From the NCBI RefSeq assembly GCF_009834535.1, contig NC_045696.1, positions 50,160,001 to 50,224,000 on the forward strand: a DNA stretch of 64,000 nt, given 5' to 3'. The notes beneath the pieces are model-generated. The model was not told the DNA's origin, did no database searches, and saw only the letters and a list, made by a program, of their open reading frames with translations. Position 1 is the stretch's first letter. Every line of letters begins with the position of its first letter. This stretch comes from Camelus ferus. Taxonomy: Eukaryota. Below, in pieces: positions 2,801-60,078 of the stretch. A program made the translations under genes and the position numbers.

Positions 2801-4225
2801 AGTGCAACCATCACCACTATCTAGTTTTGAAATATTTTCATCACCTCAAAAGGAAACTCCATGCTCATTAATCTCCCCCCATTTTACCTTTCTCTCAGCC
2901 CCTGGCAACCATTAATCACTTTCTGTCTCTGTGGTGTTTCTCTTCTGGGTATTTCTGTATAAACAGAATCACACAATATGTGATCTTCTGTGTCCAGCTT
3001 CTTTTGCCTAGTATAGTGTTTTTGAAGTTCATCTATGTTGTATCCTGTACCAGTACTTCATTCTTTTTTATGGGTGAATAATATTGCACTGTATGGATGT
3101 ACCACATTTCCTTTATTTATCAGTTAATAGGCATTTGGGTTGTTTCCACTTTAAGGCTGTTGTGAACAGTGTTTCTGTAAACATTTGTGTACAGGTTTTT
3201 GTGTGGATATATATTTTCATTTCACTTGGGTATTTTCCTAGCAATGGAATTACTGGGGCCTGTGGCAGTAATTCCTTAACCTTTTGAAGACCTGCCAGAC
3301 TGTTTTCCAAAGCATCTGCATCATTTTGCATTCCCATCAGCAATATATAAGGATTTCAATTGTCCATATTCTTGCCAATACCTATCATCTTCCATTAAAA
3401 AGGAAATTCTAGTTTCCCTAGTGGGTGAAGTTGTACTTCATTGTAGCTTAATTTGCATTCCCTTAATAACTAATTATGTTTTTAACATTTTTTCCTGTGT
3501 TTATTAACCATTTATATACATATTTTTGAAGAAATGTCTATTTAACTCCTTTGCACATTTTTAATTGGGTTCTTGTCTGTTTTTGAGCTGCAAGAATTCT
3601 TCATATATTTTGGGTACTAGTCCCTTACCAGATAAATGATTTACAAATATTTTTCACATTCTGGGAGCTGTCTCTTCACTCTCTTGATAGTGTCCTTTAA
3701 AGCACAAACGTTCTTAATTTTCATGAAGTACAATTCACCTATTTATTCTTTTGTTGCTTGTGCTTTTGATATTGTACCAAAAAACTACTGACAAATCCAA
3801 GATCATGAAGATTTACTACTATGTTTTCTTCTAAGGAAACATACTATAATAGTTTAATATAAACATAGATGTTATTGTTTTAGTTTTTATATTTAGATAT
3901 CTGATCTTTTTAAAATTATTTTGTGTATCATGCATGAGGGAGAGTTCCAAATTTATCCTTTGCATGTGGATATCTAATTGTCCCAGCACAATTTACTGAA
4001 GAAAGTATACTTTTCCCTTTGAATGGTCTTGACACTCTTGTTAAAAATCAATTGACCAAAGATGTATGGATTTATTCTGGACTCTGTTTTTTTCCACTGA
4101 TGTATATAACTATTCTTACACCAGTACCACACTGTTTTAATAACTATAGTTTTGTAGTGAGCTTTGAAATAGAGAAACATGAGTCCTCCAACTCTGTTTC
4201 TTTTTCAAGACTTTTTTGTCTATTG
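2801..4225 (-). mobile_element. Older LINE-1 fragment (L1MB-like), antisense
   Basis: Minus-strand ORF fragments (YKTIVIKTVWYWCKN...INPYIFGQLIFNK; PVIPLLGKYP...LFTTALKWKQPKC) are L1 ORF2 C-terminal motifs. Confidence 0.85.
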
Positions 4226-4258
4226 TGGGTCTACTCTTTCCTGCCTCAGTCCAAAGTG

Positions 4259-4300
4259 CACACACACACACACACACACATATGTGTGCATACACACATA
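4259..4300. repeat. (CA)n microsatellite with degenerate CA/TG tail
   Basis: cacacacacacacacacacacatatgtgtgcatacacacata, about 150 nt into BTLA intron 2. Confidence 0.85.
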
Positions 4301-4448
4301 TGTGACCACAAATTACAATCTGTGAGTCATGGTAGCCTTCTGATGTTTTATGTGAGTTCAATGTCTAACATAATCACTTGATAATCTGAGCCCTTTTCTT
4401 GAAATATGATATGAAAAACATTAGGTAGTCTTGGTATCTAAAACTCAC

Positions 4449-4771
4449 TTGTCACATTAATGGTAACTGAGTGGCTTTCAATGAATCCAGACAAAGAGTT
4501 CACTGAACGGCGGTATGACCCATTTTCACTAGCAAGCACCTGATTAAAATGCAAAATAAAAATAGAAATATTCTTCCTTTCTTCTCAACCCATGTATCCC
4601 TGAAGTCTGTCCCCAAGATGTAAACAGCTGTTTCCTTCGAGCTTGCACCAGGCCCCAGCAAGTCTGTTAGCACAGTATTTCACAGGCATTCCAGTTCAAA
4701 TGGATCCCCTGCTGACACAGCACATACAGAATATCTCTTAATGTAAAGTCGTATGTCACATGACTCTTCCC
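4449..4771 (-). pseudogene. BTLA: BTLA exon 2 (Ig domain), disrupted by a frameshift, a nonsense codon and a lost Cys
   Basis: Acceptor ttttgtttttatctctcag|GG and donor ACA A|gtgagt are intact. Reads EESCDIRLYIKRYSVCAVSAGDPFELEC-[1 nt missing]-VKYCANRLAGAWCKLEGNSCLHLGDRLQGYMG*EERKNISIFILHFNQVLASENGSYRRSVNSLSGFIESHSVTINVT, recognisably the BTLA Ig domain. Length is 323 nt, not a multiple of 3 for a phase 1-1 exon. Confidence 0.9.
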
Positions 4772-5089
4772 CTGAGAGATAAAAACAAAATTAAAATCAA
4801 ATCTGTTCTGGAAGGACTAAATATTTGCCATTTCAACAGTTTCTGACAAAGATTTCTCAAGTATGATTCTATAATTTTCCCAATAACATTTTCCAGTATA
4901 TTAACCCTTATTAGCAGAGTGTCTGCTAGTGACACATAGTAGGCATATAACAAATATTTGTTGAAAAAAATCAAAATTTCCTCAATTTTCAAAATATTAC
5001 GATTTTCATTATTATAAAATTAGATTTTATTTTATTTTATTATCTTCTAGCTACTCCAATAATAGCAAATAATAACAATTTCTTGTCAA

Positions 5090-5310
5090 TTTCTTATTGT
5101 ATTGTAGGGGCTGTTCAAAACACATTAAATATTTCAAGTTATTTAATTTTCACAACAAAAATAATATATATTATTATGAACCTTGTTTTAGAGATAAGGG
5201 AACTGAGGTAGCAAGAATTTGTCTAAAATGTATATGCTAATAATTAGGAAAATCAAGATTCAAATTTGTATGAGTTCATTACTCTATAATTCATTAACCA
5301 TTACTCTGTT
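5090..5310 (-). mobile_element. MIR SINE remnant
   Basis: MIR-core-like ttatttaattttcacaac...ttttagagataaggggaactgagg. Confidence 0.55.
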
Positions 5311-7763
5311 GTTGTTTCTTGAGCAGTAATCACATTTTCTATTACTAGCTCTGGTATATTCCAATAAATGACATTAGGATCTTTTTTTACTTGTTTTTCA
5401 ATGACTTTTAAGATGCCTTGCAATTTTTTCCATGGCTTTTTCTATGTAGGAGACATGCAACTTAAGATAACTTTCTGAAGATAGGATGTTCTGAGATAAC
5501 CTGATTTTTTAATATTTTCCCAAGTGTGAGGGACAGCAGTTATCCACCTCTTTTGGAAGTTATGGCTTCTGGCCCAACATACAGGAAGCATGCTTTCCTT
5601 TGTTTTGGTGGGGAGAGCTTTTTCCTGGAAATGGATTTTTCTATTATCTCCTCTGAACCTTCTGTTAGTAATCATTATTTGTATATAAAATCTGCAGGAA
5701 AAAAAAAAAATCTGCAGCCAAGAAAAAATTTTAAATTATCTGTATTATTGAATAAATTTTGTTACTCTTAATTTATTATGAAATTTTGTACCTGGTAACC
5801 TCAGCACCTGAAGTATAACCTCAGCATCCAAGATACATGAAAAAGAAATTTTCTCTGAGCAAACAAAATAGCTATGGCAAGATCCAAAATGTATCTCATT
5901 TTTGTACACAATTCTTACAATTCCATTATCATTTCCTAATTACCCAGGGCATAAGTATGTTATGTAATAAAGACTAATAACTATGTTTATAATGATAAGA
6001 TTGAATCAACAATACAATTCTAAATGATGTTTAAATACCGTCTATTTTTAGATGTAAAGAAGTGTTCAATCTGTTTTACTAAGAATTTCATCATAAATGG
6101 TTACTCAAAAAATATGTAGCCTACAAAGGGGCACACTTCAATTATTTAGAATGTACATTTATATGGAAGTATTCACTCTGTGATAATTGCTGGACTCTAT
6201 TGTCTCTTTCGAGACTCATGCTATATAAGGAGCATGAGAAATGGCACCAATTCATAACCACTACTTAGTCTTTTTGCATCAGTTACATCACGAGTGTATA
6301 TAAATCATGATTATTCTACTATGGGACTGACTCCCTATGATGGTGAAACTAAAATAGGCCAACTAAAATTAGATCTAACTAAAATAGGCAATGATTCCTT
6401 TTAGTTAAGCACTGTGTAGTGATTTGTATCTTCTTATTTTTTCCAGCAGAATTAGCTTTAGCTAAACACATGGTCTACAGGATGTTTTCTCTCTGACCTT
6501 TTCCTACAACCTTACAGGTCTTTCTTGGCTCTGTCTCTGCCTGTTTTGAACACTCTCTCTGTGATATATCCAATCCGTCTAATTTCTTTCAATAATTGTA
6601 AATTATTAGATTTTTAATAGATTAATAGTATCATAGGTTATAATGACATAAGCATAACTGAGATTATAGCCAAAATTCTTTTTTAAAGACAAAGGGTTAA
6701 GGACTAGTCAGACGTGGAACTGGGGAACAACTTTTGGTCCTGCATTCCACATACTGCTTTACCAAGCATAATGTTCTACTTCATTTCTACACCTTGGCCA
6801 GCACAATAATTCTTTTTTAGCTATTTCCTAATATCAAATAAACCTCTTCCTATGATTTATGCTCATATCTCATCAATCGCTGCTCAGAATAATTGAAAAC
6901 TGACTCAGCTTTCAAGAATCAGATCGAGACAAGGAACCTGCAGAGAACTTGTAGAAACCTCTGAATATTTAGATACTTATAACTGCTCGAAGACCTCAAC
7001 AAGTTCACTTTAATATACCCTAATTCAGTTGTTTCCAAAAATTCAGCAAAAATCAAAGCAAACTCGAAGTCAAGTTATGAGGATGAGGTTTTTAAAAACT
7101 TGAAGTGAAAGGGTAAGATAATTTACTGAAAGGAAATCTCTAACAATGTAACATCTGGGTGTGTTTAGACTTACAACAAAAAAAAGCAAGGAGGCCAGAG
7201 GAGAAAGACCAAGTGAAACCCTTGTTTCCAGAAGTCTGTTCTTCTCCTTAAAGTTAATAAATACCTCAGCCTCCTAACTTCCCTATTCATTTTCTTGGAT
7301 AAAATCAATCATAACTTATGGAGCCTACAACTCTGTGCCAGCATTGTGACAAACTAGAGCGTTATAGGCAAAGAACTTTTTGATCTCAAGGAGCTTATCA
7401 TTTAATTGGTGAGACAAGATTAATGAACAAGGTCACTTTTCTGAAATAAACTTACTATCTACCACTCCTTTTTTTACCTTCAAGTATATATGAGCTGAAA
7501 AGGAAGGTTCAGAGGGACCTTGTATGCTGGATGTAAGGTGGTATAGGAATAGATAAGACAAGGTACCTTTCTTGAAAGGGCTTGCCTTCTAATGGAAATA
7601 GAGAGGCTTAACAAGTAGGAGAATGAAATAACACTAGAATAAGGGGCAGACTTTGCTTGGTGTGCAGAGGAATTGTAATAGTGAAGAACAAATGTGATTC
7701 CACATTAGCTCTGTTCCTTTAGCTCTAACCCTATTCCAGTACTTAGTCATGCTGGTTCTGCAT

Positions 7764-8188
7764 TTTTTGTAAAAGAATGTTGCATATAGCCTGAAATATA
7801 CAAGGTAGCCTATTTTCAAGGCTCTGACCTTTAAAGGTATAACACTTTCCCTTTCATATAAAGATTAAAAAAAAGTTGCAGAATATAAAATAACATTTGT
7901 CTTGTTGGAGGTTTACAGGAACATCATGACCTGACCTACGTGGACAGCTGCAAGAACAAAGGATCCTGACACTAAGAAGTTTGCAACACTAACCACACCC
8001 CCTCCCCCTTTTCAGTTTAAAAGGAGCCTAAATTCTGACTTGGGGAAATGGTTCTCCAGGGCATTAGTGTGCCATTTTCTCAGTCTGTCGGCTTTCTGAA
8101 TCAAATCGTTATTACTTGCCCCAACACCTCATCTCCCATTTTATTGGCCTGTAGTACAGCAAGCAAAATGAGTTTGGACTCGGTAACA
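7764..8188 (+). mobile_element. Solo LTR (ERV1-like), copy A
   Basis: Ends in ...ggactcggtaaca and is flanked by a 4-bp direct repeat GCAT (7760-7763, 8189-8192). Its 3' half is similar to the LTR at 8869-9386. Confidence 0.7.
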
Positions 8189-8868
8189 GCATAACTTCAA
8201 CTGGGACTATAGGGGCAAGGCTGAATGAAAAGGTCATATATGAGCTAAACCTTAGTGAATGAGAAGCTCTTTGATAACCAGAGCAGTGAATAGAACAGAG
8301 AAGGTATTCTAAGACTGGGGAAACAGAAGGGCAAAGGCAGACTGGCCAGGAATCTCCAGGAAGATTTAGGGAATTGATACACACTTGGATCATGGTTTTC
8401 TGAAAATAATGACACTAGTTGTTTCAGAATAAATGGAATAAGCATTGGGTAGAAGAAGTGTAAACTTTGTTATCCACCATGAGAAAATACAGAGTCTGAG
8501 TCTTTTGGTATATTTATAAAGGGTATGTAAATAACTGAAAATGAGAATCTGCATTTGAACATGGTTCTTCAAATGCTAAAAGACTGTGTGATGTTGAGAC
8601 AGCCACCCAGTCTCACTGGCCCTCAGTTTCTTTAAAATAAGATGCAAGGATTGACTACAAAAATAGGAAAAGTCTTAGCCACTATCCTCTCTTACATACA
8701 AACACATACGCAACTCCATCTCCCTCAGCGTATGTCTGACACTTCTAAGTCTCTCGTTCTATTACAGTATGTTACCTTTCTATTTAGCCATTGGGCTGTC
8801 ATCCAATGCTAGTAGCACTATTGAAGATCCCTTCTAGTTCCCTCATTCCATGACTATATGCTGGGGAG

Positions 8869-9386
8869 TGTAATAGGGAACAAATCTGACTCCATATTGG
8901 ATCTACTTCTTTTACTTTAACCTTTGTATCTATTGCTTCTGCTACAAGTTAACCATTAAAGTGATGTTGCTTATAGCTTAAGGTGTACATAATGGCCCAT
9001 CTCCTGGAACCCCTGCCTCCCATGCCTGAGTGTTAAGCTAAAATACCTTTGTTTAAACTCACAGGAAACATCTTGACCAGACCTACCCGTGAATGGCTGC
9101 AGGAAAGAAGACATTAATACATCCCTTTCAGAGTCTAGTCAGAGCCAGGAAATATTTTTAAAGACGTATTTCCTTTTTTGACTTTACCTCCTCACCTCCC
9201 CTTCATTGTTCTGAAAAAGAAACTAGCATCCAAACCCCAGGCAAAATGGTTCTCTGGAACACTAGTCCATCATCTTCTCCGTCTTCTGGCTTTCTGAATA
9301 AAGTTGCTATTCGTTGTCTCAACAATTCCTCTCTTGATTTATTGGCCTGTTGTGTGAAAAGAAGTATGAGCTTGGGCTCGGTAATA
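8869..9386 (+). mobile_element. Solo LTR (ERV1-like), copy B
   Basis: Starts tgtaatagggaacaaatctgactccat, has an internal AATAAA (about 9297), ends gggctcggtaata, and is flanked by a 4-bp TSD GGAG (8865-8868, 9387-9390). Confidence 0.8.
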
Positions 9387-11615
9387 GGAGTGCACAAAGT
9401 GGATCAGGAGTGGAGAAGAGCTAGCTGTTAGTCCTGACCCCGTCAATGACTTGCAGTAGGATAATGGAAACATCACTGCGGTTCTTGCATATTCTTATCA
9501 GCAGAATGAAGATCATTGGCAGTCACACTGACTGACCAGCATAGGATTTTTTCTTGAATGGAGGGAAGAACAGATGGAGGCTTGCCAACTGGCATTAAAT
9601 GTCATTGACAGTACTCATTCTTTGTACAAAGAAATAATTAATACTGCGTATCTCCCTGATACTGAAACTGATGTTTGTAGAGCAGGACTGATACACTAAG
9701 CTAAATGACATAATTCTAACTTTCCATTTGAGAAGCATGTTGACACTTTTTTGCTGCTTGTCCTGAAGTATGTAAAATCATCTGTGACACTCAGGATATC
9801 CAAAGCTGTCCCCAAGGGTTTGTCTCATAAAACAAACATTTTCTGAAGAGGAACGAAGATCTCAGCCGCTTTTGGCTGGGATTTATCAGTCAATGTTAAT
9901 TATTGTTATTACTGCTATTTTTCTCAAACATTCATATCTAATGGTAGGGAATTTTCAATGCTAAAAATAATTAAAATAAATGCATGCAGTGAATGATGCA
10001 CTCTCTACCATCCTCAGGCTCTCATATGAAGTATCCCTTTTTAAGTCACTGTAGGTTTTTAAAAATTCTTATGAACACCACTACTGAATTATGAGAGTAT
10101 GTACATTCCATGACTAGGGTGTACTTAGCATAGTTGATGCCCAGAGTGCATCATTTTTAACAATCCCTTTTTCTATATGGAAAAATATTCGGAAGTAATC
10201 ATTAAATGAAACAAATAATAAAATGGTCTAAAAAGAAACATAGACAGTGAATATTTTCTCTCATTAAACTTCAAGCATAAAATGATGCAAGTTAAAAAAA
10301 TATTTGAAAAATAATAATAGAATACAAAAAGGAAAAATGTGCAGATATTTAATAATTTTATATCCACCTAAATAGCATAAACTTCAATTCTTTAGTTATA
10401 GCCTAATACTTAAGTTTATATAATTTTCCAGTAATTAATAAGTGAATGTTACTAAAATGGAAATTCTCTAAAAGATACAATTTAGACAACTACCAAATTG
10501 TACCACTAAGGTAAAGTTTAATTTTCTTAATTCATTCTTTAAATTTAAAACATTGCTTTATAGAGAAAAATACATCTCAATTGTAAAGATATTAATAAAA
10601 CATTTCATATATAAATTTTAGTTCATGAATGAAAAAAAGTTGTGCCTCCCAGTTTGTACTTTGCTTTACTTTTTAAAATTTTAAACAAATAAATATTCAA
10701 AATGATTGCATAGAATGAAAGAAATGAAACCACTCATATTCTGTTTCTGTATCTCTATAATCACTGTGGTATTACTGTTCATTTAAAATCTACTGTGTAA
10801 ATGCAGCAATAAGTAGTACCACAGGGGTTGGAGACACAAACTACTTGAAGCAAGTTCAAATGATTCTGAACATTATGAATTTACTTTTGAAGTAAATACA
10901 TGTAGCTGAACTTGTATGTGTTCAGGGGCAGCTCTCTAACCGGGATGTTCTCTGAGATAACTTTTACGTAGATGTGATGTTTATGAAAGGGGAAGTACTG
11001 AAAATGTACTAATTTGAAACTTACACACATATTATTCAAACTCAGGAGTAACCAGAGTAATTATTTAGAACTTAGACCAAAAATTTTTTGGGGGGGAGGG
11101 GATATTTTATCACTGATATTGTTCAGAATTACTGGCATATTGTGGTCATTAAAAGTAGACCAAATTTTTTTGCTTTAAAACTCTATACAGAGAAGGCACC
11201 CACTTACTGCCCACACCCAGGGGTGTGGACATCCCACTGTTCATGACTATTTAGTAATAGGACAGTTTCTAGTGCAAAGGGGATGCAGAAAGAGCTCACT
11301 TGTCTCTTCAGCTTTCTCATCAGATTTTTTTTAAATATAATTATCTTGAACAAGATACAATCTCTTAGAGTTTTCAGATCTCTGAGAGAGAGAGAGAGCC
11401 CTTCTGGCTGGGTAATCAAGAAAGGCTTCAAGGAGGAGCTTGAATTTTCTTCTGTTTCAAATCCCACCCCAGCACTAATCGGGTCCTCCTCCCATTACCA
11501 CAGTATAATACTGTCATCTACCTAATCACGTGGGCCAGAACCTGGGTCCCATCTTGGTCTCACTCCATTTCATCAGTTACCAGGTTAAGTTAACTCAGCA
11601 TCCAAAATATCTTTC

Positions 11616-11891
11616 TTTTTGTTTGTTTGTTTGGTTTTTTTTGTTGTTGTTTGCTTTTGTTTATTTTTTTAACATTTTTTATTAAGTTATAGTCATTTTA
11701 CAATGTTGTGTCAAATTCCAATGTACAGCACACTTTTTCTGTTATACATGAACATACATATATTCATTGTCACATTTTTTTTTCACTGTGAGCTACCACA
11801 AGATCTTGCATATATTTCCCTGTGCTATACAGTATAATCTTGTTTATCTGTTCTGCATATGCCTGTCATTATCTACAAATTTTGAAATCTT
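11616..11891 (-). mobile_element. Short camelid-type L1 3' end with A-rich tail, inserted in an L2 remnant
   Basis: Reverse complement matches the 3' UTR of the young L1 at about 39980-40190. 10-bp TSD aatatctttc at 11606-11615 and 11892-11901. Confidence 0.85.
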
Positions 11892-13999
11892 AATATCTTT
11901 CAACTTTGTTTTTATGCCACTGTCGTAATTTGGGTCTCATTCTATTTCACGAAGGTTACTGTCACAGATGACCACCTAGATTTCTACATTCCAAACTTGG
12001 CCTTTTCCCCCTCCCCTACTCCAATTCATTCTCGACATCACTGTCGCAGTTTACATTTTTAAAATGAAAATCTAATTGCAAGATTTTCCCTAAAACCTTT
12101 CAAAGATTCTTCAATGCCTGCAAGATAATGTCCAGACTTCATCAAATGGCATTTAGCCCCTGCTTCTTTATGCAAACTAACCTGCCACACACATATTCCA
12201 GCAACCCAAGTCCACTTGATGTTACCCCCAGTAAATGTTCCACGCTGTTTTGTGTGACATGTACCATTCTATTATAGTTAAATACGTGTTTATGCATCTG
12301 TCTTCCGATCTGGTCTACGATCCCTTCTTGATGGGATGAGATGGCCTCAGAAAAGGTATGAAGAGGTATGATGTACACTGAGACTGAACAGAGAGAGCTT
12401 CATGAAGAGGAAAATCTGATATCACAGCTCTAATGCTCTCTGTACACTAAGGCCACTGAGCCCTTAGAGAGGTGGACTAAAGACATTGAGGTGAAGATTA
12501 TTTGCAACTCAACATACCCTTTGGTGATTAAAAAAAAAAACTAGACCATACCAGTATGCAGTGTAGAAAGGCCTGATTTATGTTCATTGAGAGGTGATAT
12601 TCAGTATATTTAAGAAGTGACACCCCATGGTCACCAGATACCTAGATCAGCCAATCAGAAAGGCACACCAGCCACAAAATACTCCCTGGTCCAGTACTTT
12701 CCGGCTGAGCAAGTATGGCTGCTGGTATAAATACCACAAGTGCTGAAAACACTAAGGAATTTGTGAAACTGATTAGCTACTAAAATAAAGATGCTCATGG
12801 TTATGAATGTTGCACGAAATACAATCGTTTCTTACTTTTAAAGACCATATGTCTTGATTATAACTATTACCATGAGGAAATCCCAGTTGACTTTGACTAT
12901 CTCCCCATTGAAACATTCTTTCAGATTTATGAAAAGATCAAAATAGTTACAATCACTGAAGGAAATGAATGCTGCCATAAATGTAGATTGCCTTAATTTG
13001 ACCGAAGACAGAGTTACAGTTGACCATAAATGTGTAAACAAATAATTCTTGAAAAACTAAAATAATTATGAAAGGTGTAAAACAGCAATAATTTTCTGTG
13101 ACATGAACCAGGATTTTAGCTTCTATCAGAAGATACTGTAATAGAGAAACAACAAACAAATTACAGATACATGATGGGGAGACCTCAGAAGGAGAGAAGA
13201 CTGTAGACTCAGGAGGAAACATGCTTTCAGGGGATGCTGACGGGATGGTCTGCCTTGCTGCAGAGTGCTGGAGGGGTAGAGGTCAGGGGAGAGATGATTA
13301 CTAGTAAGGTAAGGAAAACAGGATCCTCTTCCCTAGCAAACTGGTGTGGCTTAGGGGTCCTGTGAAAAGTCCACACACAGTGACAGCAGCCATGTAATCA
13401 CACATCAAAGATCCTGGAAGGACATCCACCGGGAAAGCCTCAGGGAATCTCATGCACAACAGCAGAAAGCCCACGGGGCATACTTCCCATCACAAGTCAG
13501 CTGGCACAGACTCCTCAAATCAGAAATGTGACAGGAGACGAGGGTGGGGGAATTCCATCGCATACAGAAACCACTAATTTAATGTTGTATTCTGTTGATT
13601 AAACTCATTAGTTTAACTCTGTGGTAAGCAAACCCGCTCCGTAAATCAGATATTCCCAGAAGTGGTAGGAATATCTGGGGAAATTTGAATAAGAATGACG
13701 CACACATCACATTGTTAAAAGCGGAGCTTCTATTTTAAAGGATGACCATTGTTAAAGAAAAACCCCGTGGCTTGATCCCTCAGGGACACAGTGAACACTG
13801 ACTGGGCCTCAGCTCCTACGGTGAGATGAAAGAGCCTCAGTCCTTACAGGGAGAGCCACCTGACAAACAGCACATAATGTAATAGCGCTCCCTGGCATAA
13901 AAGTGAAATAATAGTTTATCTTCTTCTCTCTGGATATTGTCTGACACTGATCTCCAGACAAGGATAGGCAACTCCTCCTTGCCTGAACACATATATACC

Positions 14000-14062
14000 A
14001 CACACTCACACATATCTCACACACACACGTATACACACACATGTACCCACGCACACACATAC
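14000..14062. repeat. Degenerate (CA)n repeat
   Basis: acacactcacacatatctcacacacacacgtatacacacacatgtacccacgcacacacatac. Confidence 0.7.
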
Positions 14063-16074
14063 AAAAGGAGAGAGACTTACATAATGTGAAGCCCCTTTAG
14101 CAAAAATGAAACTGAAAAGAACTAACTTCACACCAAGAATCTATATGGCATGAATCCATATTTATTCCCTTCATCTGAAAAACAAAGACCATGAATTGAG
14201 AAAATAGAATTTTTGCGCTCATCTTCTATTACTATTTCCTCTTTAAAATCTCCTTAAGATGGTATGTGAATGAGAACACCTTCGGAGGGTTGTTAGCTCT
14301 ATGCTTGGCTCATAATGCATAATAATAAATGCCAGGTGTTACTATTTTTTGGATAGGATGGATTTAGGGACGTGCCACAGCAGTTGACACATCCAAGGCC
14401 ACAGGCCTGCGGGTGGCAGAGACAAGGTGGAAACCCAGAAGGTCTGCCCCTGGTGCCTCTCTCTGAATAGTTATTTCCAGCTGCTTTCGGGGATCGGCAG
14501 TGATACATAATGACTGGTCTAGTCACCGGCCAAATATAACAGATAGAAAAGGCGGTACATCCTGTAGAAAACTGTCCTTTATGTGAGGCATAAAATTCTT
14601 CAGAATTTTACTAATCAGGAAGACCAGCCTTGGTTAAAACTAGGAAGTAAAAAAACCTTCATCTTTGGGTATTTTCTTAAGACGTCTCTCAGTACTTCTT
14701 CATTACATTTCTACCAAATGACAAATGTCCCCCTACGGTTTTACCCTATTGGTCACTGACTTTGTCTCCCCAGACCAGAGGACCCATTCCAGTCCTTCAG
14801 CATTCTGCCTGCCCTATATGACAGAGATAAGTATCTGGTGGAGAATTCGTTGGCCAGTATGTAATTAGGTCTCTGGAACAGCAAACATATTTAGCCAGTT
14901 CAATAGGCCTGAAAGTAAAATGATTCATGTTGACAATCTGGAGAATAGTTCTGGGCAAGGAAGCCTGTCTGGCACAGGTGGGCTCGTCCTTCGGAGATGG
15001 TAGGCCCTCCACCTTGGTCACAGTGACTTCAAGGCAGGAAAAGCAGGGCAGGAAACGCCTGGAACATACCTTAGAAGCTGTGGACAGTAGCATCCAAGAG
15101 AGCCATTGGCATTTTGTAAGAAACCAATGTATTTCTAAGTATTGCCTTCAGTGATAGAGGGGTTACATGTATTGTTCAGAGTAATCGTGGGTTATGTGTT
15201 GTTGGAAGGACACAGGGAAAGTCCATCTCTGCTTCTCTCCCAAATATTCCCTCACCTTCCTAATCCATTCTACCGCAGGGATCACACTGAGATTCACTGG
15301 CATTTCTCAAATTCTAGAAGATATTTAACATTATCTATGTGGGCAGAAGTGCCAGTTGTCCCCCAATATTAATTCTCTTCTCCTAATATCACAGGAGAAA
15401 AAGAAATGGAGCCATCACCACCCAGCTAGAACCGAAATGTTGCAGCCTTCCTTATGGCTACTTCTGGACAATGGGCTGTTTGTGAGATATGCAAGTTCCA
15501 GGTTATGTTCATAAGATAAATGTGGCTATCAGGAAGGAGAAAAGCTAAGAAAAGTTAAGGGTTCTACCAGCTAAACCTAACACTTCCCTGTGACCAGCCC
15601 AGATGGCCCCTCTAACATTCTCCCGGACTGTGTTCAAAGAGAACCTCAACTTGTACATGTTTAGATTCTGAGCATATGAACACAATACCTGCATGTGTAT
15701 CCACAGACACAGGCACACAGTACTTTCTTCCATAGAGATAAGCATGGAAATTAGAGTCTGTAACCATGAAAGGATGCCAGAAAGGTGGAAAATACTAAGT
15801 TTATTTTGATGTAAGGGAGTGAAGAAAATTAGAAAAGTGAAGCAAATTGCTTATGATACAATAATTCATCGACACGATGTAACTCAAGTCTCAGGACTCC
15901 CAAACTCTTTTCTCATTTCTTGGTGATTGGGGATGATAGCAGATAATGATGTCAAGAGTCTTTCATAGACTATTTTTGTCAATCCCAAATGAGAGACGAT
16001 CACCCAATGCTACTTTAAGGGAACTATCAAGCTAATTAAATTTTGGACTGAAACACAAACAAACAAAAAACTAA

Positions 16075-16315
16075 AACATTATTAGCCAAACTTACATAGC
16101 AGTTAAAATGCATCAGGCACTGTCCTAAGAGCCTTAGAGAATTAATTCACTTAATAATTACAGCAACCCTGTAAGGTCAATATCATTATTGTCCCCGTTG
16201 TTTAGATAAGGAAAGAGAACCAGAGAGGTTACAGTCATACAACCAGCAAATGGCAGCGATGGGAGGGTGATCTAATACTCCAGAGTCCCTGACCTTACCC
16301 GCTCCACCACTGCCT
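16075..16315 (-). mobile_element. MIR SINE remnant
   Basis: caggcactgtcctaagagc...cagcaaccctgtaaggt...attattgtccccgttgtttagataaggaaa...agagaggtta. Confidence 0.65.
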
Positions 16316-18024
16316 CTCTAAGGAACAATGCAAAAGGGGGATTTTGTGTTTGCACGTGATTACAAGTGTTTGTGAACATTCTTCTTTCAACAACTCTGAA
16401 ACTCACAAATAATGGAAATTAAGAAGGAAAGTCCCAGTGAAGCAAGATAAACTATCTGACTTCAATGTTATAATAAGAGGAAATTTTGATAGTGGGACAG
16501 AGGAAGCGGTAATTAATTAAAGAGCTCAGTGTTAGAAAAGTCTATTCAAGGCTGTGATCAACACAGGGGTTAGTCTTTTCATACCTTAATCCAGGAAACC
16601 CTGCAGCTGCAGGATGTATTCCTAGACATTTATGTAGGAGGTAGTCATATTTTATGGCAGGCATTTTTGTGATAACAATACATGGGCACTGGCAGAAGGC
16701 AGGGCTCTGTCTCTGGCAGACGATTTGCATTTTCCAGTAGGAACAAGTAGGTAGATTCAGAGAAATAAGCCTGATAAAGATGCTGTGTTACAAAATCAGA
16801 CTTGAAAGCAAGAGACAGATACTGAGCACCTTCTGCCCTGGTGTTTCTGCTTTGAACAAAGGATAACGTCTGTTCATGGTGGAGAAACACAATCTGGGAG
16901 GGATGTGAAGTATGGATCCATGGAACACACTGAATCAGCACAATAAAGGAGAAAGAGAACACAGGCAAGACCCAAACAGAGACTTGGCCTCAACCTCTCT
17001 GTTCTCAAAAGAGCCAAACTATATGTGTTCTCTGGTTCTAGTCCAGATTAGGATGATTTATTAGAATAAACAGTGATCAATCAGAGACTTCCTCCTGGCT
17101 TCATTCAGGATCATATACAGTGCCAAGCAGTAGCCAGACATAAACTGCTGCGCTCCTGGCTGCTTGAAGGTGGAATCCTCAATTGATGCTCAATTGAACA
17201 AGTGGTCTGGGGCCTCACAGCGGAAGCTGCTCATTGGGGATGAGCAGGTGACTGAAAGGGGCATCTCCACCTGCAGCCTAGTTCTCATCAGCATCACCTG
17301 CCATCTGTCCATGTGTATGTGCTGACACTTTTAATACTTTCATCTAGACAGAAATAATATGCTGGACACAAAGGAGCAGAGTTCCCCCTAATATTTTTTG
17401 AGAAACACAAAAGCAAGCGAGCATTATATTGTGTTATTTCATTATAAAGAAAGACCTTAGACAGGCTGTTTGTAGATAACATTACCTTTTCTATGACCTT
17501 ACTATTGATGTAGCCTCATTCTCGGGAAGAGGCACACAGACCTCAAATTGCTTTGAAGTGGAGGGAAAATTTTTTTTTTTATTATTTTTAAACACTTTGA
17601 AACTGTGCCAGTGTAAAGAATTCAGTAATTAAGTGAACTATAGGAAATCCCCAAGACATAAAGGTTAAAAATTAATGAGGTCTTAAGGAACAGACCCATT
17701 AGCTCTGTCCAGGAGAACAAAGCTCACCAAACATTCCTTATCTCAACCTGTATCCTTAATTTAATTCAAGTACCACTGCAATGCATCAACCGCTGTATAA
17801 GATACCTGGCCTGTACTTTGTCCAAGGCTTTCTGTTTCATTTTTCAGATAATTCGAAGTCACTATATTTTTGGCTAAATATATTGTACAATATATTTCAT
17901 GTATTCATTTTATTTTAGCTTCAAAAACTCAATTATTTTAAATGATGATGTTAAAACTTGTTTCTCATTTAACTGAATTTTGTGGGGGTGGCTTGATGTA
18001 AAGGATATTAGTAAAAATACCATT

Positions 18025-18215
18025 AATGTTTATCAGACTTTTCTTACGTGCACTTACTGTGCCAGGTCTTCACAGTGGGCCCATAATTGAGGTACAATTA
18101 TTATTATCTCTATTTTACAAATGAATAAGAGAGGATAAGAAACTTAACCAAGGTCACACAGTAAATGGCAGAGCCCGTAAATGAACCCAATTCTAACAGC
18201 CAAGTCCGTTTTAGT
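18025..18215 (-). mobile_element. MIR SINE remnant
   Basis: gaggtacaattattattatctctattttacaaatga...aacttaaccaaggtcacacagtaaatggcagagc. Confidence 0.65.
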
Positions 18216-18610
18216 AAGCACATCGAGAGGAGGAGCAGATATTGTACCATACTCCCAGCGTGATATATCACTGAACATTCATTTACTTCATTTCACAAAG
18301 AATAGTTTACATATTCTCCCAGCCAATATGATTTCTGTTTAATAATATTTGACTTCCGTTGTAGCTATGTGATTGTAGGCATCTGATAGAAAGTGAAAAA
18401 TCCAGCCAGCCATCTAAGCACTCCGTCAACATAATAGCACATACTTACAAACATGAAAATGCTTAGATGACTGAAGGGGACTTTCATTTTGCACTTGGTT
18501 GTGTGTCATCCCGGCATCACAAAGACAAATTCCAAACCTCACAGTTCCAGAACCGAAGATGACATCATGTAGGATTTCAGGGACTGTATTTTCTGATTTA
18601 AAACTGACAA

Positions 18611-18709
18611 GGAACAACAAGGATTTACTGTATAGCACAGGGAACTGTATTCAATATCTTGTAATAAACTATAATGGAAAAGAATCAAAGAAGAATATAG
18701 GTATACAGA

Positions 18710-18798
<89 letters not shown>

Positions 18799-18857
18799 CA
18801 AATCACTTTGCTATACAGCTGAAACCAACACAATAAAAAAAAATCAGAAAAAAAAAC
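18611..18857 (+). mobile_element. Short L1 3'-end fragment containing a (TAAA)n(TA)n compound microsatellite (about 18710-18794)
   Basis: aacaaggatttactgtatagcacagggaactgtattcaatatcttgtaataa...aatcactttgctatacagctgaaac followed by an A tail. Confidence 0.8.
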
Positions 18858-19649
18858 TGATAAAAGTATGTTTGCTTGTGGGGATAATAAGGCAGGATAT
18901 TTGAAACCAGGAAATCAGAAACTTCCACTAGCATTTTGTAGCCCTTCCCTCTTTGCAATATGCAGGCACCTGTGACAATGTGAAGGAGCAAGGGAAATCA
19001 CTTTTTTGCCTGCATAAAATCTTTGCAGAAGTGGCCAAACATCATCTATGAAGAATTCAAGCTGTTTCCTATGTCCAATTACGCCCAAAGGGGACCCGTT
19101 CTCTTTCAACGTAATAGAAGCAGAGATGAAATGCTTCCGTCCCATATTTCTCAGCACTGTCTCATTCAGGAGTCTCAAGGCACCTACCCCACCGAAGCAA
19201 GTAGCGACATTCTATTTAGTCACATCATTTAAGAGTAACCATGGCGTCAGGTATAACTTGAGTTATCCAACACCTATCCTACCCAGCTGAGCACCTCAAC
19301 ACTCCTCTAGCCTCAGTTTGGAAAGATCAAGCTATTTATTCACCATCAGTAGAGCATCTGGAGTATTTTTCTAGTAGTAGTGAAAAATTTCTACTAATCT
19401 ATTTATAGGGTCTGCTCAATTCTCTTTTCCTACCATTAGAACATGTTTTTAAGAAAACCAGCCAAGCTACGACTTAATAACTGTGTTTTCATTTGGTTTA
19501 TGTCCTATAATGTCTTTAAGTGAGCAAATCTAACTACTTGGTTTCATCTACCATTATCTACTTGACATAAACAACACATCTTACTAAGATCAGAAAAGGA
19601 AAACATTGCCTCCAAAACCCTCTGAGAAATATAAGAAAAAGTGCCTTAC

Positions 19650-19737
19650 CACTGATATTCCAAATGCCTAGATGTAGGATTAGAAAGAGGACCCAAGACA
19701 ACTTCCCAATACCAAGCATGGCAAGCGATGACTTCAT
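19650..19737 (-). CDS. BTLA: BTLA exon 1 (coding part): signal peptide, intact
   Basis: Reverse strand reads ATG AAG TCA TCG CTT GCC ATG CTT GGT ATT GGG AAG TTG TCT TGG GTC CTC TTT CTA ATC CTA CAT CTA GGC ATT TGG AAT ATC AGT G|gtaagg = MKSSLAMLGIGKLSWVLFLILHLGIWNIS(G). This is colinear with the human BTLA N-terminus as recalled (MKTLPAMLGTGKLFWVFFLIPYLDIWNIHG). 88 nt, phase-1 GTAAG donor, downstream of ATG3 on the same strand as in human. Confidence 0.93.
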
Positions 19738-31522: not shown

Positions 31523-32005
31523 TGTAACCATTTTACTCGTTTCCTATTGCTCCTGTAACCAACTGCCACAAACAGGGCAGCTTACAATAACACAATTTAC
31601 TCTCTTACAGTTCCAGAGGTCAAAATGTGTCACACTAGGCTAAAACCAAGGTGACGGCAGGGCTGCATCTGGAAGTTCTAGTCTCTGCATCTGGGAGAAT
31701 CTATTTCTTTGTCTTTTTAGCTTCCAGAGGCCACTTGCATTCCTTGGCTGTCCTCTTACCCATCTTCAGAGCCAACAGCACAGCATCTTCAAATTTCCCT
31801 GTGATTGTGACTTCCTTCTTCCATTTTTAAGGACTCTATGACAGGACTGGGCTCACCTAAATAATCCAAAATAAACTTCCATCTTAAGATAATTAATTTA
31901 GTTTCATCTGCAGAATAATTTTGGCATATAAGGTAACATATTCATAGGTTTAGGAGATTAGAATGTGGTCTCTGTGAGCGGGCCATTTTTTTTGGATGCC
32001 ATATA
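31523..32005 (-). mobile_element. MaLR LTR (MLT1-like)
   Basis: cacaatttactctcttacagttccagagg...gggagaatctatttctttgtc...aggtaacatattcataggttt. Confidence 0.75.
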
Positions 32006-32571
32006 CATCGATTCTCATCACTCATGACTTGAAGGCTGCTCTCAGGAGGGGCATTAGCACTTCCAGCCCACTGCTCAGGTAAACCAAGCAGCCTCTGGTG
32101 ACCAGGGAGAGCCCATAAGCAACGAAGTGCAGGTGCCAGCAATTGGAAGTTGGGCAGATGCACCAAAATGATGAAGATGAAAGAAAGATACAGGTGGGGC
32201 TCAGACACTGTCTGCTGCAGTTCCTCATGATTCTAAGTCAATAAATGGAAAGCACAGGCAGCCCTCTTATTAGATTTTGTTTTGATTTAAGAGATGAAGG
32301 AAGGGAGGGAGGGAGTGAGAGAGGATAAAAAGCATAGGATATCTATGCAAAAATATTATTTATATGTTAGAAAAGGTTCATATAAAGGTAGAGGAGGGAC
32401 ACAGAGCTCAAAAAGCAAGCCACCGTATTTTTCAACACTTAAAAAAAGAAAGACAATTCTGAAGAATCAAAGGGACTGCCTCCCTTTGAAAGAGATTTAT
32501 TAAGAGAAACAGAATAAATTTTAGAAAATTTAATGTTTTCAACATAATTCAAGAGTTCATTGTTCATTTTG

Positions 32572-33790
32572 GGAAGATGGGGGTGGCAGCAGCATAGGTT
32601 TTGAGTCTTTCCAAATCCCCACGCCAAAACAAACAGAGCAACTACACAGAAAACCAAAAACTCATAACTAACATTTACCAAAAAAACCCAACACCAACAA
32701 ACAAAAAAATCCCAGGTAACAAATTACCCCAGAGAACGCAGATGAGGACAAATTACCAACAGGCATGGTATCAGCTCTGTGCAGACAGAAGCAGAAAGAT
32801 GCAAAAGGGCATTTGACAGATCTGAGAGTAGCAGGACCCCAAAGTAGCCAAGGAACTCACTGGAGCATATGCGGGCCAAGTGGAAATAGCAACTGAACTG
32901 GGAGGGGTGTGCCCACTCCGTTAGCTGGTAATCATAGGAGCCCGCAGGAAGAGGGTGGCTGGAGAGGTCTAGTCTCTGTGAACTTTCAAAACTTGGCCAC
33001 CATGGCTCCCTCCCGGGATAGGGCCCACACTAAGCGGTAACTACTAGGAGTGGCATCAGAGGATATGACAGGGATGATAAAGATGAAGAGAAGAAAAGGG
33101 TCATAGGAAGGTGGGGGAGGAAAACAGAGTTCAGAAAGCAAGCCACAACATTTCTGAACTCTATAAAAGGAAAGAAAAAACAAAACCCAAGACCAGAAAA
33201 TAGAGCTCTCTGCAGTTAGCAAAGCTACCCTGAACCATTTCATTGCTCATTCTAAAAATCTGGAAGAGCTAATTAAGAAACAGGAACATATTAAGGGCAA
33301 ATCCCAGACCAAGTGATTATAAGAAATTAAAGAACAGAATAACTTCCCTGCAAACAATGAAAGCATGTCAGAAAGACACTCACAAAATAGATTTAAAGAG
33401 AGCTAAAAGAAATTTAACACAAGACATGAAAGAATAACATAATTTAGATCAGAAAAACTCAAAATAAGGCGAGACTTCAGAAAAGAATTAGAAATAAACA
33501 TTTCAGGAACAAACACTAAACAAGAAGGAACACAAGGGTGAATGAGCATGACAGATAACACCTTAGTAACACAGAAGGTAAAAATTAGACTGGTTTCTAA
33601 ATTCAAAAGAAATGAATAGGTAAAAAGGATTTGAGAGAAAGTAACAATATTGAATGCAGGCAAAAAAAAGATCTAATATACAGTTAACAGAAATCCCTGG
33701 TGAAGAAAATCAATGCAAGAGAAAAAATACTAAAAAATATATTAAAAAGTTTTCCTGAAATAAAAAACATTGTGATTCTAAGACTATTAA
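32572..33790 (+). mobile_element. Old LINE-1 5' region / ORF1 remnant
   Basis: Starts ggaagatggg, followed by a GC-richer 5'-UTR-like stretch and then A-rich decayed ORF1-like sequence (agatctaatatacagttaacagaaatccctgg...tttcctgaaataaa). Confidence 0.55.
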
Positions 33791-55090: not shown

Positions 55091-55172
55091 TTACATTGTG
55101 AAGTGTCTTGTGTAGTCATATTCTATTGTTGGAATGACAGCTTGTACAAATTTCAAGAAAATTAGAAGATAC
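55091..55172 (-). CDS. ATG3: ATG3 last coding exon with stop codon (approx. exon 12)
   Basis: atttag|G TAT CTT CTA...ACA ATG TAA; 82 nt; [26 protein letters not shown]. Confidence 0.97.
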
Positions 55173-56777
55173 CTAAATGTGTTTAGATAAGGAAAATAAA
55201 TTGGTAAATAGTTCTATGATTTAAGCTAACATTGTAATTATCCATTTTATCAAGCAATAACTTCTCAGGTAAAAATACAGAAGACAAAATCTTAAATCAA
55301 GTATATTAAAAAAAAATTCACTCATGCAAGTTTGTGTCTATTCAACACCAGGTTCTCCATATCTTTAAGAATGTCTAACCCATTCTATTTAATATTTGCA
55401 TGTGAAACTTCTTAGTGAGTATGAGCTCAAGTATTTTGATATAAAAATAAGGGGAAGGCTATATATATTTGAGTCGAAAATGTTCTTTTTACTGCCTTTA
55501 AGTTTGCTACAGCGTGTCAGATAATAAGACAAGGCAAAGAATATAAAAGCACTGAAGCAAAAGAGCAAAAACTAATTAAGTGAAACCACATAAGGACTGA
55601 GTCTAGGTTTGTATACGTACCTGCCATAGAATCTGCTACACTGCACTGTCTTTAATAAAATCCTGAATTTTTTTCTATGCTCCACTGCACTTGGAAACAC
55701 TAAGAGCTTATTTTTTATTGGAGGAATTGATGACTCAACTATGAATTACATAGTCTTCCAAGTTTCTATCTAGCATCCAACAGAGATGAATGTTCAAATT
55801 ATGCGTAACAGGATTTCAGGTTTGGACCAGAAGTTCTTGGTTTGTTTCAGTATCAAACCAGCCCAGTGCTTCTCTGAGGGACATGCTCTATTAGCAACAC
55901 TTAGGTTATCTGTAGTTCTGACACAGTGGTGACTCCTCGGTCTACAACTAACACCGAGTGGCAACTAACAACTAACAACTAACCACCAAGTCTAATAGCA
56001 ATCTAGCACCAAACTAATTCAAGCTTTTTGGAATTCAAATCATTGGCTTTGGCTGCTTTTGATGAATCCATGCTATGGGTACATGTATTTCAGGATCCAG
56101 TAGTTTACTTAATTCCTCTTGCAACCCCAGATAATTGAAGGGGTGCTTTTAGCTGGAGAAAAATGAAAACACTGTATTTTAAGACTACCTGAAATAGGCT
56201 TCATGTGCTTTACTTTTTAATTACCCTACTTGTTTAATCTGAATCCTCTGCTTCAGAGAGACCTCAGACTGACAGAACCCAACTTCACTTTTACATCATG
56301 GGAAAGTGCATTTCTGATAATATGGTAAATCAGAAATAAACTTAAGAAAAAGACGCTCATGTGTTAGCCTCTAAATTCATAGGTTACCCATCTTTCATCA
56401 ATAGATTAAGCCCATTGAGTTTCTTTTCCATCAAGCGTTAACAGTTTTGTAAAGACATACTCTTAGCCATTGCCTCTTCAACAAACAAAAGCATTTGGCA
56501 AGCTGCTACCTAGAAGCACATACTGCTCTGAGGCTCTGCAACAAGGCAGAGCTAATTGGTGCACACAGGGACATGTGCTAATTAACTAAACAAGGCCAGA
56601 ACTACCACAATGTAACATTTTCTAAATAAAAGCTTCCCACTAAGACTTCTAGTTCCTACCAGGGACTAAAACAAGTTATAGGTATTGTGCCATTAAGTTT
56701 ACACTAAATTTCCCAAAAAGGAAAGAAAAAATCTCAGAAGCCAAATTGCCACTAATCACATACACAGGTAAGGATAC
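55173..56777 (-). other. ATG3: U12-type (minor spliceosome) GT-AG terminal intron of ATG3
   Basis: The 5' splice site GTATCCTT matches the U12 consensus RTATCCTT. A branch-site-like TTTTCCTTATC lies at 55196-55186, with its A about 16 nt from the AG, and there is no long polypyrimidine tract after it. Confidence 0.88.
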
Positions 56778-56846
56778 ATATGAACACCAAGCTCTCCTCC
56801 TCCTTCTGCAACAGTCTCAATAATTTTCTTCATCACCTCAGCATGC
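56778..56846 (-). CDS. ATG3: ATG3 penultimate coding exon (approx. exon 11)
   Basis: ttttag|G CAT GCT...CAT AT|gtatcctt; 69 nt; [22 protein letters not shown](M). Confidence 0.96.
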
Positions 56847-58792
56847 CTAAAAGCAAAAGAACAAATCATCTTAGTATAGATCTATTAGATCAAAATAGGA
56901 AAAACAAGTTTTTTGTTTGTGAAGAAGTCTACTTTACTATTGTCAGTGAATTAATTTTAATACATAACAGCAATACTGTAAAATAGTCTCCTCCCTACTC
57001 CCCAAGAAGACAGACTGTTGAGTCATGTAGACAGCTTTACTAGGGTAGAGAATAATTTTAAAAAGCTACAGTAGTCACAAATGAACACAATGGGACTACT
57101 TAGCTTTCCTATAATGCAGACGGAAGAGGGGTGGGGAGGGCAGAAAATCAGAGAAAGGAAAATCATGCCAGAGCATAATTGCAGAGCAAGGGCTGTCTGC
57201 TCTGAGAAACAAAAAAAGAATCAGACCAAGCAAATTTAAATAAGCGACATGGTAACAGTCGGTTAAAAGAAAAACAGAGCTATTTCTAATGCTGTAATTT
57301 TGACTGTTCAAACATTTAGCTGAGAACAAGCCAAAAGTGAGTTAAAGAGAAGCTAATTGGTCAGAATCAAGCAGTTAATATTTTTTTTCCCTTGTTCTAA
57401 TGTGTATTGTAAAAATTATCTGATTCTATTCAAAAAATTTTTTGGCTTCATATAAAGAAAGATATTTATCTGAAGTTTTCCACAAGCTTTTTCGTGGCCA
57501 ACTGGTGTCTCTCCTGTGCCAGAGAAAAGTGATAGCAAAGTAACTGCTTGGGCACATAACGGCATCACAGAAAAGAAATGAACTTTTATACGTATCCTGG
57601 CTTAAATAAAGCCACTTTAATTTTTATGAATATAACCTTCACTGACAGAGGCAGTCACCTTAGAAGATGAGAGTAAATGTATTAGCCCTGAGAATATAAA
57701 GACATAATTTGAGGTAGTTGATGGAAAGGCCTAAAATGTCCTTGCAGTCTCATTTAACAAGCCCCCAGCTCTCTGTGTGTGTGCCACATTTACATTATAT
57801 TCCAGAACAGTTATTTATTAAAATATTTAACATTAACATTACCAGTTAAATTAGTTATCTCTTTTCCCCACTAAGTAAAGTTTATACCTCAGAAAAAGAG
57901 CTGGCTCAGTTTGATAAATGCCATTCTAAAATCTCAAACCATAGAGGGACCAACAAAATAATTCTCAATACGAAAACCTTTTAGGTTATTCTAAACTTAA
58001 ACAATTACTTGAATTACATTTGACATTTAGCAATATTAACAGCCTTGACATAAATTGGAAAAATGAACTAGGCTTTCTATGGGATAAAGTTTAGGAATAA
58101 AGGGGTTGTAAAAAGAAAAAATTTTTTTAGTGTCAAAGGATTTTTAAAAACTAGAATGTTGCATCTAATTAGTCAATGGAGTATCAGAGTTTTCATTTGA
58201 AAAATATTGCTCCCAGAATTTCTCAATGATTTGTAGAAGTTACCCACTAGAAATAACTAACTGAAAGAAATTTGCATGTTAACGTTGTATTTTGTTTCTT
58301 TTAAGGAAAATCCTAAACAAATCATGTATATAGACTCAGCTTCACTTATTTGGCCCTGTTAAAACATTGATTCAAAGAAATCCTAAATTATAAAACCAAT
58401 AAAAGGAGATAAATGGGTCACCTAGAAAAAGCACAGAGTTAACTTTATATTCCACATTCACAGAAAGAAGCATTATAATAGAGCAAACTATATCTAAATG
58501 ATTAGTATTTTTTAACCTAAAAAGGATCTTCCAAACTATTTTGGAGCTTATAACAACAGCAGTAAAATCACAAATATATATTATAACTAAACACACACAA
58601 AGAGCAAAAAAAAAAACATTCTTAATGAATCTAAACAAATTGTTAAGTTTTTTTTCTTATATATTTAAGCATAAAAACATTTCTAAAGAAGACAAAAGAG
58701 AATTTTGTTCATTAAGTAAATTTTTTGTTAGGGCACTATGCTTGCACACACTCCCAAGTAATAAATCCATGAAGAATAATACACACACATAC

Positions 58793-58920
58793 CTGCATGG
58801 GTGAACTGAACACATAGGAGGTGGTGGAAGATGAGGGTGATTTTCAATGGTCACTGTTTTCTTCACATGATCTTGACTGATGTCTTCATACATGTGCTCA
58901 ACCGTTAAAGGCTGTCGTTG
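58793..58920 (-). CDS. ATG3: ATG3 coding exon containing the catalytic Cys (HPC motif; approx. exon 10)
   Basis: ttcag|CAA...TGC AG|gtatgt; 128 nt; [42 protein letters not shown](R). Confidence 0.97.
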
Positions 58921-59693
58921 CTGAAACCATAAAAAAATGCTTTGAAATTACTGTTTTAGGCCTAAACTTCAGTGTTTGTATTTATCCAAACCTCCCATAT
59001 CACTTGCAATTTAGAATTCTAGACTACTCGGAATTACCAGATTATTGGGGGGAAATTATATACCCAGTAGGGAGGGAGGAGACAGTCTGTTCAGCAAGGC
59101 CATGTGACATCAGCCACCATCTAATGCAGTAAAGATCCCACAAAAAAGACAGGTTCATGGCTATCAAAACACTTTATAACTTTATAACATCTTTAAGGTT
59201 TATATCGTTTTATTTTCCTATTTCCCATTTATAGTCATTGTAATGCTGACAGGTTAAACAAGTTAGTTTTATTTTAGTTATCCTTTAATTCAATTATGTG
59301 AATGGGTAAAAAAAGGTTTCTGTATTAAGGGGAAAAAAAAATTACATGCAACATGATCATTCTGTAAATGCCTATATATATCCAAACATCCAATAGATAT
59401 AATCCCAAACACAATTTAATAAAACAAGCCAACTTCAGCTTCCCTCAAATTTTGAAGGTATAAGCTTAGTGACCAAGAAATAAACATGTAACAGATTGTT
59501 TAATTCTTGGTAGTGTTGTTGTCACACTGAATAATTGATAGTTTCTTCAAAATAAGAATCAAAGTCAACATTAATCATAAAATTACAAAACAAATGATTT
59601 CTAAAATTTAAATGGCCAAAATACATACTATGGACATAATGACAAAGGGATGAAACCTAATGATTTAAAACATTTACATGAAAATAAGTTTAC

Positions 59694-59849
59694 CTCATCA
59701 TAGCCGAACAACCATAGTCGTGGCGTCTGGTAATATTTATCGTAAGTGATGTAAAGGTCATAAGTTCTGGTTTGCAAAATAGCATCTTCACCTCCAGCAT
59801 CAGTTTTAGCTTTACAAGCTTCTACTATTTTCCTTGTATCCAGGGTAGC
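59694..59849 (-). CDS. ATG3: ATG3 coding exon (approx. exon 9)
   Basis: ccag|GCT...GAG|gtaaac; 156 nt; [52 protein letters not shown], hallmark ATG3 sequence. Confidence 0.97.
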
Positions 59850-60078
59850 CTGGCAATCGTGGTAAAAAATTTACAATCATTAAAATCACTATGAGTGTGA
59901 TATTTTAGAAAATCTGTTTTCCCACTCTATATATTTTTTTAAAAGCAGATATAACAAAACTCAAAGTTAAAATGTTATATGCTATAAATGATGTACATAT
60001 ATAAAGACTTGTTTGATATATTAAGAACACCAATCCTCAAGTTTATTCATTAAAAATTAAAGAAAGCAATTTACAGAC

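Follow-up and report, generated by a model that had tools for sequence, protein, structure and literature searches.

The BTLA–HVEM pathway, a conserved restraint on lymphocytes, is a target for drugs, and BTLA knockout mice show heightened immune responses. The window considered here, the whole stretch of 64,000 nucleotides of the Camelus ferus genome that was analysed (G000:C1:50160001-50224000, within a 2.087-Gb assembly of 2043 contigs), carries the first two exons of BTLA (CD272) on its minus strand, and raises the question of whether this animal still makes the receptor at all. A sequence-only reading of the window had proposed that the gene is inactivated and that this lineage lacks a ligand-binding BTLA, a proposal now borne out by the lesions themselves, by the single copy of the gene and by matching RNA. 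We put at roughly 0.9 the probability that the single BTLA orthologue in the Camelus genome is by now a decayed but transcribed unitary pseudogene.

In this pseudogene reading BTLA has kept its promoter, its splice sites and the order of its exons, and RNA is still made and spliced. The message is broken by three changes of frame, namely 1-bp deletions in the immunoglobulin (Ig) and transmembrane exons and a 23-nt deletion in the last one, and by a nonsense codon at a conserved tryptophan; the cysteine of the SYRC motif, the entire immunoreceptor tyrosine-based inhibitory motif (ITIM) and the tyrosine of the immunoreceptor tyrosine-based switch motif (ITSM) are gone as well. With a canonical transcript predicted to encode a 59-residue peptide only, the camel would be left with no BTLA able to bind HVEM or to recruit SHP-1/SHP-2, and BTLA protein function would thus be absent.

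An interrupted immunoglobulin exon

The following features of the window, in its own numbering, define the first part of the gene.

19650..19737, minus strand: BTLA exon 1 (88 nt), with ATG, signal peptide and donor GTAAGG
4449..4771, minus strand: BTLA exon 2, Ig domain (323 nt), with acceptor ...tctcag, donor gtgagt and three lesions
4685..4686, minus strand: 1-bp deletion in the Pro codon after ELEC (CCC>CC), a frame shift with a TGA directly after it
4585..4587, minus strand: TGG>TGA at a conserved Trp codon, nonsense in the resumed frame
4507..4509, minus strand: CGT (Arg) for the Cys of the SYRC motif, in the resumed frame

Exon 1 translates to MKSSLAMLGIGKLSWVLFLILHLGIWNIS and is identical to residues 1-30 of sheep BTLA at 18 of 30 positions. 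When it is joined to exon 2 the first stop falls at codon 60, giving a product of 59 amino acids that ends ...GDPFELECL*; beyond the signal peptide it holds just the opening strands of the Ig domain and lacks most of the fold. The exon-2 reading, EESCDIRLYIKRYSVCAVSAGDPFELEC, breaks after ELEC, and past the break the next frame reads PVKYCANR...GYMG*EERKNISIFILHFNQVLASENGSYRRSVNS...TINVT. The letters 'gaatgcctgtg' at this point give PVKYCANR in the next frame only, which fits the loss of one C at 4685-4686. Both the truncated product and the three lesions of this exon had been described in the sequence-only reading; the product was reproduced, and each lesion was found at the position given there.

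How far these positions are constrained in other mammals was read from an alignment of 86 full-length mammalian BTLA proteins (280-345 amino acids; 34 of the 120 proteins available were dropped for length). The proline following ELEC is present in 85/86, as is the tryptophan at the position of the TGA, and the cysteine replaced by arginine occurs in 85/86 with a gap in the remaining one. In the solved BTLA structures this cysteine is the partner of the ELEC cysteine in the disulphide of the Ig fold. A chance resemblance is not an issue, because these discrete disabling lesions sit in sequence that matches BTLA Ig domains at E 4e-22.

Damage to the signalling half of the gene

The remaining exons were sought by aligning the BTLA proteins of hippopotamus, sheep, goat and colugo to 20 kb fetched from the left of the window, in which all of them were located.

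G000:C1:50159174-50159206, minus strand: BTLA mini-exon (33 nt), left of the window
G000:C1:50157811-50157950, minus strand: BTLA transmembrane exon (140 nt), left of the window
G000:C1:50156362-50156408, minus strand: BTLA exon 4 (47 nt), left of the window
G000:C1, from 50153430 downwards, minus strand: BTLA last exon, left of the window

Introns are thus kept, the exons extending over about 46 kb with GT-AG borders, so that this is not a processed copy. As read in the assembly, the damage appears to go beyond the Ig-exon lesions described earlier, with three further lesions outside the window. The transmembrane exon reads ...FCCLR and then continues as HRG in the next frame only, fitting a second 1-bp deletion (AGAAGG>AGAAG). 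The frame of the last exon proceeds through ...CLKENKEDIG to an in-frame premature TAA; a 23-nt deletion leaves 7 nt opposite hippopotamus residues 270-279 (VYASLNHSII, the ITIM), and the remainder of the exon, VKGMNPRQAGSLHETPTKNAAVCMRR, reads in another frame. There the TEYA of the ITSM has become TKNA, a Tyr>Asn change in the assembly sequence. Among the aligned mammalian proteins the ITIM tyrosine is found in 85/86 and the ITSM tyrosine in 86/86. The spliced model as a whole changes frame 0>2>1>2, with an in-frame TGA and TAA, and holds no open frame through the Ig domain, membrane segment and tail. Since even a form that skips exon 2 still enters the frameshifted tail, no isoform yields a binding or signalling receptor.

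Independent sequence and a spliced transcript

Whether these lesions exist in the animal, and not merely in its assembly, was addressed by aligning Logan contigs of four sequencing runs (X9, X13, X15 and X16) to window positions 4200-5000, so that the read comparison bears on exon 2, and the transmembrane- and last-exon lesions are those of the assembly sequence. X9 and X13, which derive from samples and studies other than the possible source runs and whose library kind is not on record, each contribute a single contig of 4515 nt that agrees with the reference throughout 4299-5000 (0 other letters, 0 gaps). An unspliced contig from the RNA-seq run X15 covers the same 4299-5000 with 0 differences, and a contig of X16 does likewise over exon 2 itself. 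The lesions in exon 2 are therefore no assembly artefact: across all four runs the exon is covered with 0 differences and 0 gaps.

An assembly or sequencing error masking an intact BTLA would be suggested by two of the gene's three frameshifts, each of which alters one base in a short homopolymer (CCC>CC, GG>G), but the exon-2 deletion, TGA and CGT recur unaltered in these contigs, which refutes the idea for that exon, and a 23-nt deletion and base substitutions are atypical of homopolymer errors. For the locus as a whole such an error has a next to negligible probability.

The X15 contig was rejected as a sign of transcription, as it is unspliced and may stem from library DNA or pre-mRNA. X16 is more informative. 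Its 355-nt contig, at depth 34.9, spans exactly 4449-4773, and below 4449 it continues, as a loose end, into the first letters of the BTLA mini-exon. A second, 57-nt contig has a loose end above 4773 that maps uniquely, both in the window and in the whole genome, to 5550-5576, and so marks an exon within the first intron.

5548..5576, minus strand: 3' end of a cryptic or alternative exon in BTLA intron 1, spliced to exon 2 in X16; a GT donor follows 5548

The donor border of this exon reads ...ccaaaagag followed by gtggat, and the X16 joints have GT-AG borders; the exon may have arisen from a repeat. Intron contigs flanking exon 2 in the same run have a depth of 5-8, compared with 34.9 for the exon. 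Because the X16 contigs join exon 2 to both the mini-exon and the cryptic exon, the BTLA pseudogene is transcribed and spliced, and its lesions are present in the RNA. Directly downstream of exon 2, a further X16 RNA contig covers intron positions 4299-4405 and departs from the reference at 4405, where its 39-nt loose end could be another splice joint or a variant.

A transcript that is made and spliced, with an exon depth well above that of its flanking introns, could in principle have acquired a new role, either as a regulatory long non-coding RNA that includes the cryptic exon or through a functional 59-residue signal-peptide product. Its use of an exon absent from the protein models of other species would be in keeping with this. 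However, dead genes are commonly transcribed from a surviving promoter, and the 59-residue product is devoid of most of the Ig fold, so that we regard a new role as highly improbable.

A single orthologue beside ATG3

The second part of exon 2 finds five matches in the PDB, all of them BTLA Ig domains (E 4.4e-22 to 1.1e-14), and is 82% identical over 79 amino acids to the BTLA of hippopotamus, sheep and goat; in the protein search with this exon every named match was BTLA. The identity of the gene is further tied to its neighbourhood.

55094..59870, minus strand: ATG3 3' exons, a synteny marker, with open frames 55094-55213, 58660-58947 and 59631-59870

These three frames match Pfam PF03987 (Autophagy_act_C) with E 2.4e-4, 3.4e-13 and 3.3e-11, respectively, and lie at 55-60 kb on the same minus strand as BTLA, whose exon 1 starts at 19737. 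In a tree of 26 rows, comprising the camel BTLA read-through and 25 of the 120 proteins gathered in BTLA searches, among them no pig sequence, the camel read-through is sister to the other artiodactyls (hippopotamus, whale, sheep, goat) with support of 99 in the Shimodaira–Hasegawa-like approximate likelihood ratio test (SH-aLRT), in agreement with the species tree. The assignment of the gene as the BTLA that lies beside ATG3, made in the sequence-only reading, is upheld by the Ig-domain similarity, the ATG3 exons on the same strand and this tree. Its remark that the ATG3 exons are all intact holds for the three open frames matching Autophagy_act_C, to which the comparison was confined.

The sequence-only reading had made the loss conditional on there being no second copy. 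Exon-2 DNA has a single match in the whole 2.087-Gb assembly, and a whole-genome search with hippopotamus BTLA, in which the best candidates were scored and assembly gaps are possible, found no second copy and no duplicate exon 2, both queries matching this locus only. A match with E 0.02 at C1:4.94 Mb was rejected as a second BTLA, being an Ig domain of DSCAM.

Protein collections tell a similar story. The hippopotamus BTLA protein retrieves 147 proteins that pass E 1e-10, from many mammalian orders, and none of the 120 of these 147 that were listed bears the name of a camelid or of pig (Sus). Protein searches with exon 2 and exon 5 likewise returned no camelid BTLA, the best exon-5 match being 74% identical. 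As a control, 6/6 olfactory-receptor proteins of this genome are present in the same collection as exact matches labelled Camelus ferus and/or C. bactrianus. The mitochondrial contig, for its part, encodes a cytochrome b identical to a UniRef100 entry named for Camelus ferus and shared by two Camelus taxa. The host is accordingly a Bactrian-type camel, most probably the wild Bactrian camel, in line with the 'probably camelid' of the sequence-only reading. Since the nuclear proteomes of both species are in the collection, their annotation evidently yields no BTLA protein. Ten of the 120 listed proteins lack an organism name (8 with no name and 2 with a status label only), four of which group with equids, seals or bats in the tree. 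Among the 120 of 147 listed, the sole cetacean entry comes from humpback, a 'LOW QUALITY PROTEIN' with a C-terminal part unlike BTLA; judging from this sequence, BTLA may be decaying in cetaceans too.

Age and possible fixation of the loss

Several considerations weigh against the pseudogene reading, or at least against its broader forms. X16 was tagged 'RNA?' by guess, and it is the two splice joints that mark it as RNA. The 1-bp deletion of the transmembrane exon and the lesions of the last exon are taken from the assembly, and GG>G is a typical long-read error. The whole-genome search scores best candidates in an assembly that may have gaps, and six of the unnamed BTLA proteins are unplaced in the tree. 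Measured from the same node, the camel end branch is 0.22 long, against 0.18 for hippopotamus and 0.21 for sheep; at the amino-acid level the camel branch thus appears to be without excess, giving no sign of long neutral decay, and these lengths suggest that the loss may be fairly recent. Finally, Logan contigs drop rare variants, so that an intact allele of low frequency is possible.

The last two points would also fit a polymorphic null, in which an inactive haplotype is common in camels and intact, functional BTLA alleles still segregate: contigs hide minority alleles, the aligned runs number four, and the absence of excess branch length is compatible with a young loss. However, the one haplotype carries lesions in three exons, exon 2 does not differ between the reference, two other studies and two RNA sets, and all sampled words of 3800-5400 are present in 14/14 DNA-type runs (10 samples, 5 studies); tiny runs filed under an 'organism B' contain next to none of them. 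Segregating functional alleles are very unlikely. In the pseudogene reading the lesions would be fixed in the species. Four disabling events within about 870 nt argue that the loss is not very recent.

Parallels in other mammals and the HVEM network

Functional mammalian BTLA, as known from human (PDB 2aw2, 6nyp), hippopotamus, sheep and goat, shares with the camel gene a locus beside ATG3 and the same order of exons, encoding the signal peptide, Ig domain, artiodactyl mini-exon, membrane segment, a short exon and the tail. The camel gene differs from it in three frameshifts and one nonsense codon, in the loss of the SYRC cysteine, the ITIM and the ITSM tyrosine, and in yielding no full-length protein.

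In the standard artiodactyl phylogeny, hippopotamus and ruminants are closer to pigs than camels are, and in both of these groups BTLA is intact. This distribution matters for the second artiodactyl in which BTLA is cited as a pseudogene, as it is in camel: a passage in PMC12831279, citing Dawson and Lunney 2018 (Res Vet Sci 118:199), describes pig BTLA and CD160 as pseudogenes annotated by NCBI as low-quality proteins. On the strength of that passage the camel loss adds to a known precedent, pig BTLA, and because hippopotamus and ruminants keep the gene while being closer to pigs, the pig and camel losses would be independent. Full-text searching of the literature turned up no account of a lost camelid BTLA in the titles, abstracts and passages covered, the supplements of mammalian gene-loss screens, which may list it, lying outside its scope. 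A looser analogy is offered by human SHP-2L, which the relevant part of PMC12151841 presents as a transcribed, lineage-specific unitary pseudogene of an immune signalling gene. It may be likened to camel BTLA as an ancient gene that is dead in some mammalian lineages only and whose transcripts persist, but it is a different gene in a different pathway, and the resemblance is one of analogy only.

The fate of the ligand was approached through a whole-genome search with Pfam TNFR_c6, the cysteine-rich domain of the tumour necrosis factor receptor (TNFR) family, which gave 12 matches at 8 loci that were translated; judged by eye, none of the 12 looked like HVEM. They appear to us to resemble NGFR, osteoprotegerin, TNFRSF1A, DR6, TROY and similar genes. 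One TNFR cysteine-rich-domain match, at G000:C19:15097777-15097899, has an internal TAA and a short open frame only, as would fit either a damaged exon of a TNFR-family gene or a match running across an exon boundary.

A wider scenario would place the loss of BTLA in the common ancestor of camelids, independently of pig, and would add to it the loss of CD160, the second Ig-type HVEM receptor, also as in pig. We consider this combination doubtful. If true, the inhibitory arm of the HVEM network would have been taken apart convergently in two artiodactyl lineages, and camelids would be viable, naturally occurring double knockouts for a checkpoint holding back T, B and gamma-delta T cells.

Other features of the window and genome

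Between BTLA and ATG3, the open frames 38762-39669, 43912-44259, 45520-45816 and 51278-51739 are, by eye, candidate fragments of LINE-1 open reading frame 2 (ORF2). A 4-kb bin of the window, 32001-36000, has a GC skew of 0.216 and an AT skew of 0.256, its plus strand being purine-rich. Elsewhere in the genome, nuclear copies of mitochondrial cytochrome b, in which TGA codons are read as stops, were seen at G000:C4:17507937-17508350, C32:6715804-6716313, C18:35574923-35575438 and other places.

Implications for camel immunity

Camels, like pigs, probably live without the BTLA checkpoint. A link between this loss and the heavy-chain-only antibodies of camelids, mooted in the sequence-only reading, is speculation and has no support. 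A large, long-lived mammal without BTLA would mean that this brake is either dispensable or compensated for, and would provide a natural model of how. In practical terms, anti-BTLA reagents and BTLA read-outs would be useless in camels, and automated annotation should refrain from reviving the camel gene as a low-quality protein. A missing checkpoint should be allowed for in studies of camel immunity, among them those on immunisation for nanobodies and on tolerance of the Middle East respiratory syndrome (MERS) coronavirus. Taken together, camel and pig pose a testable question, that of a repeated loss of the Ig-type partners of HVEM in artiodactyls.

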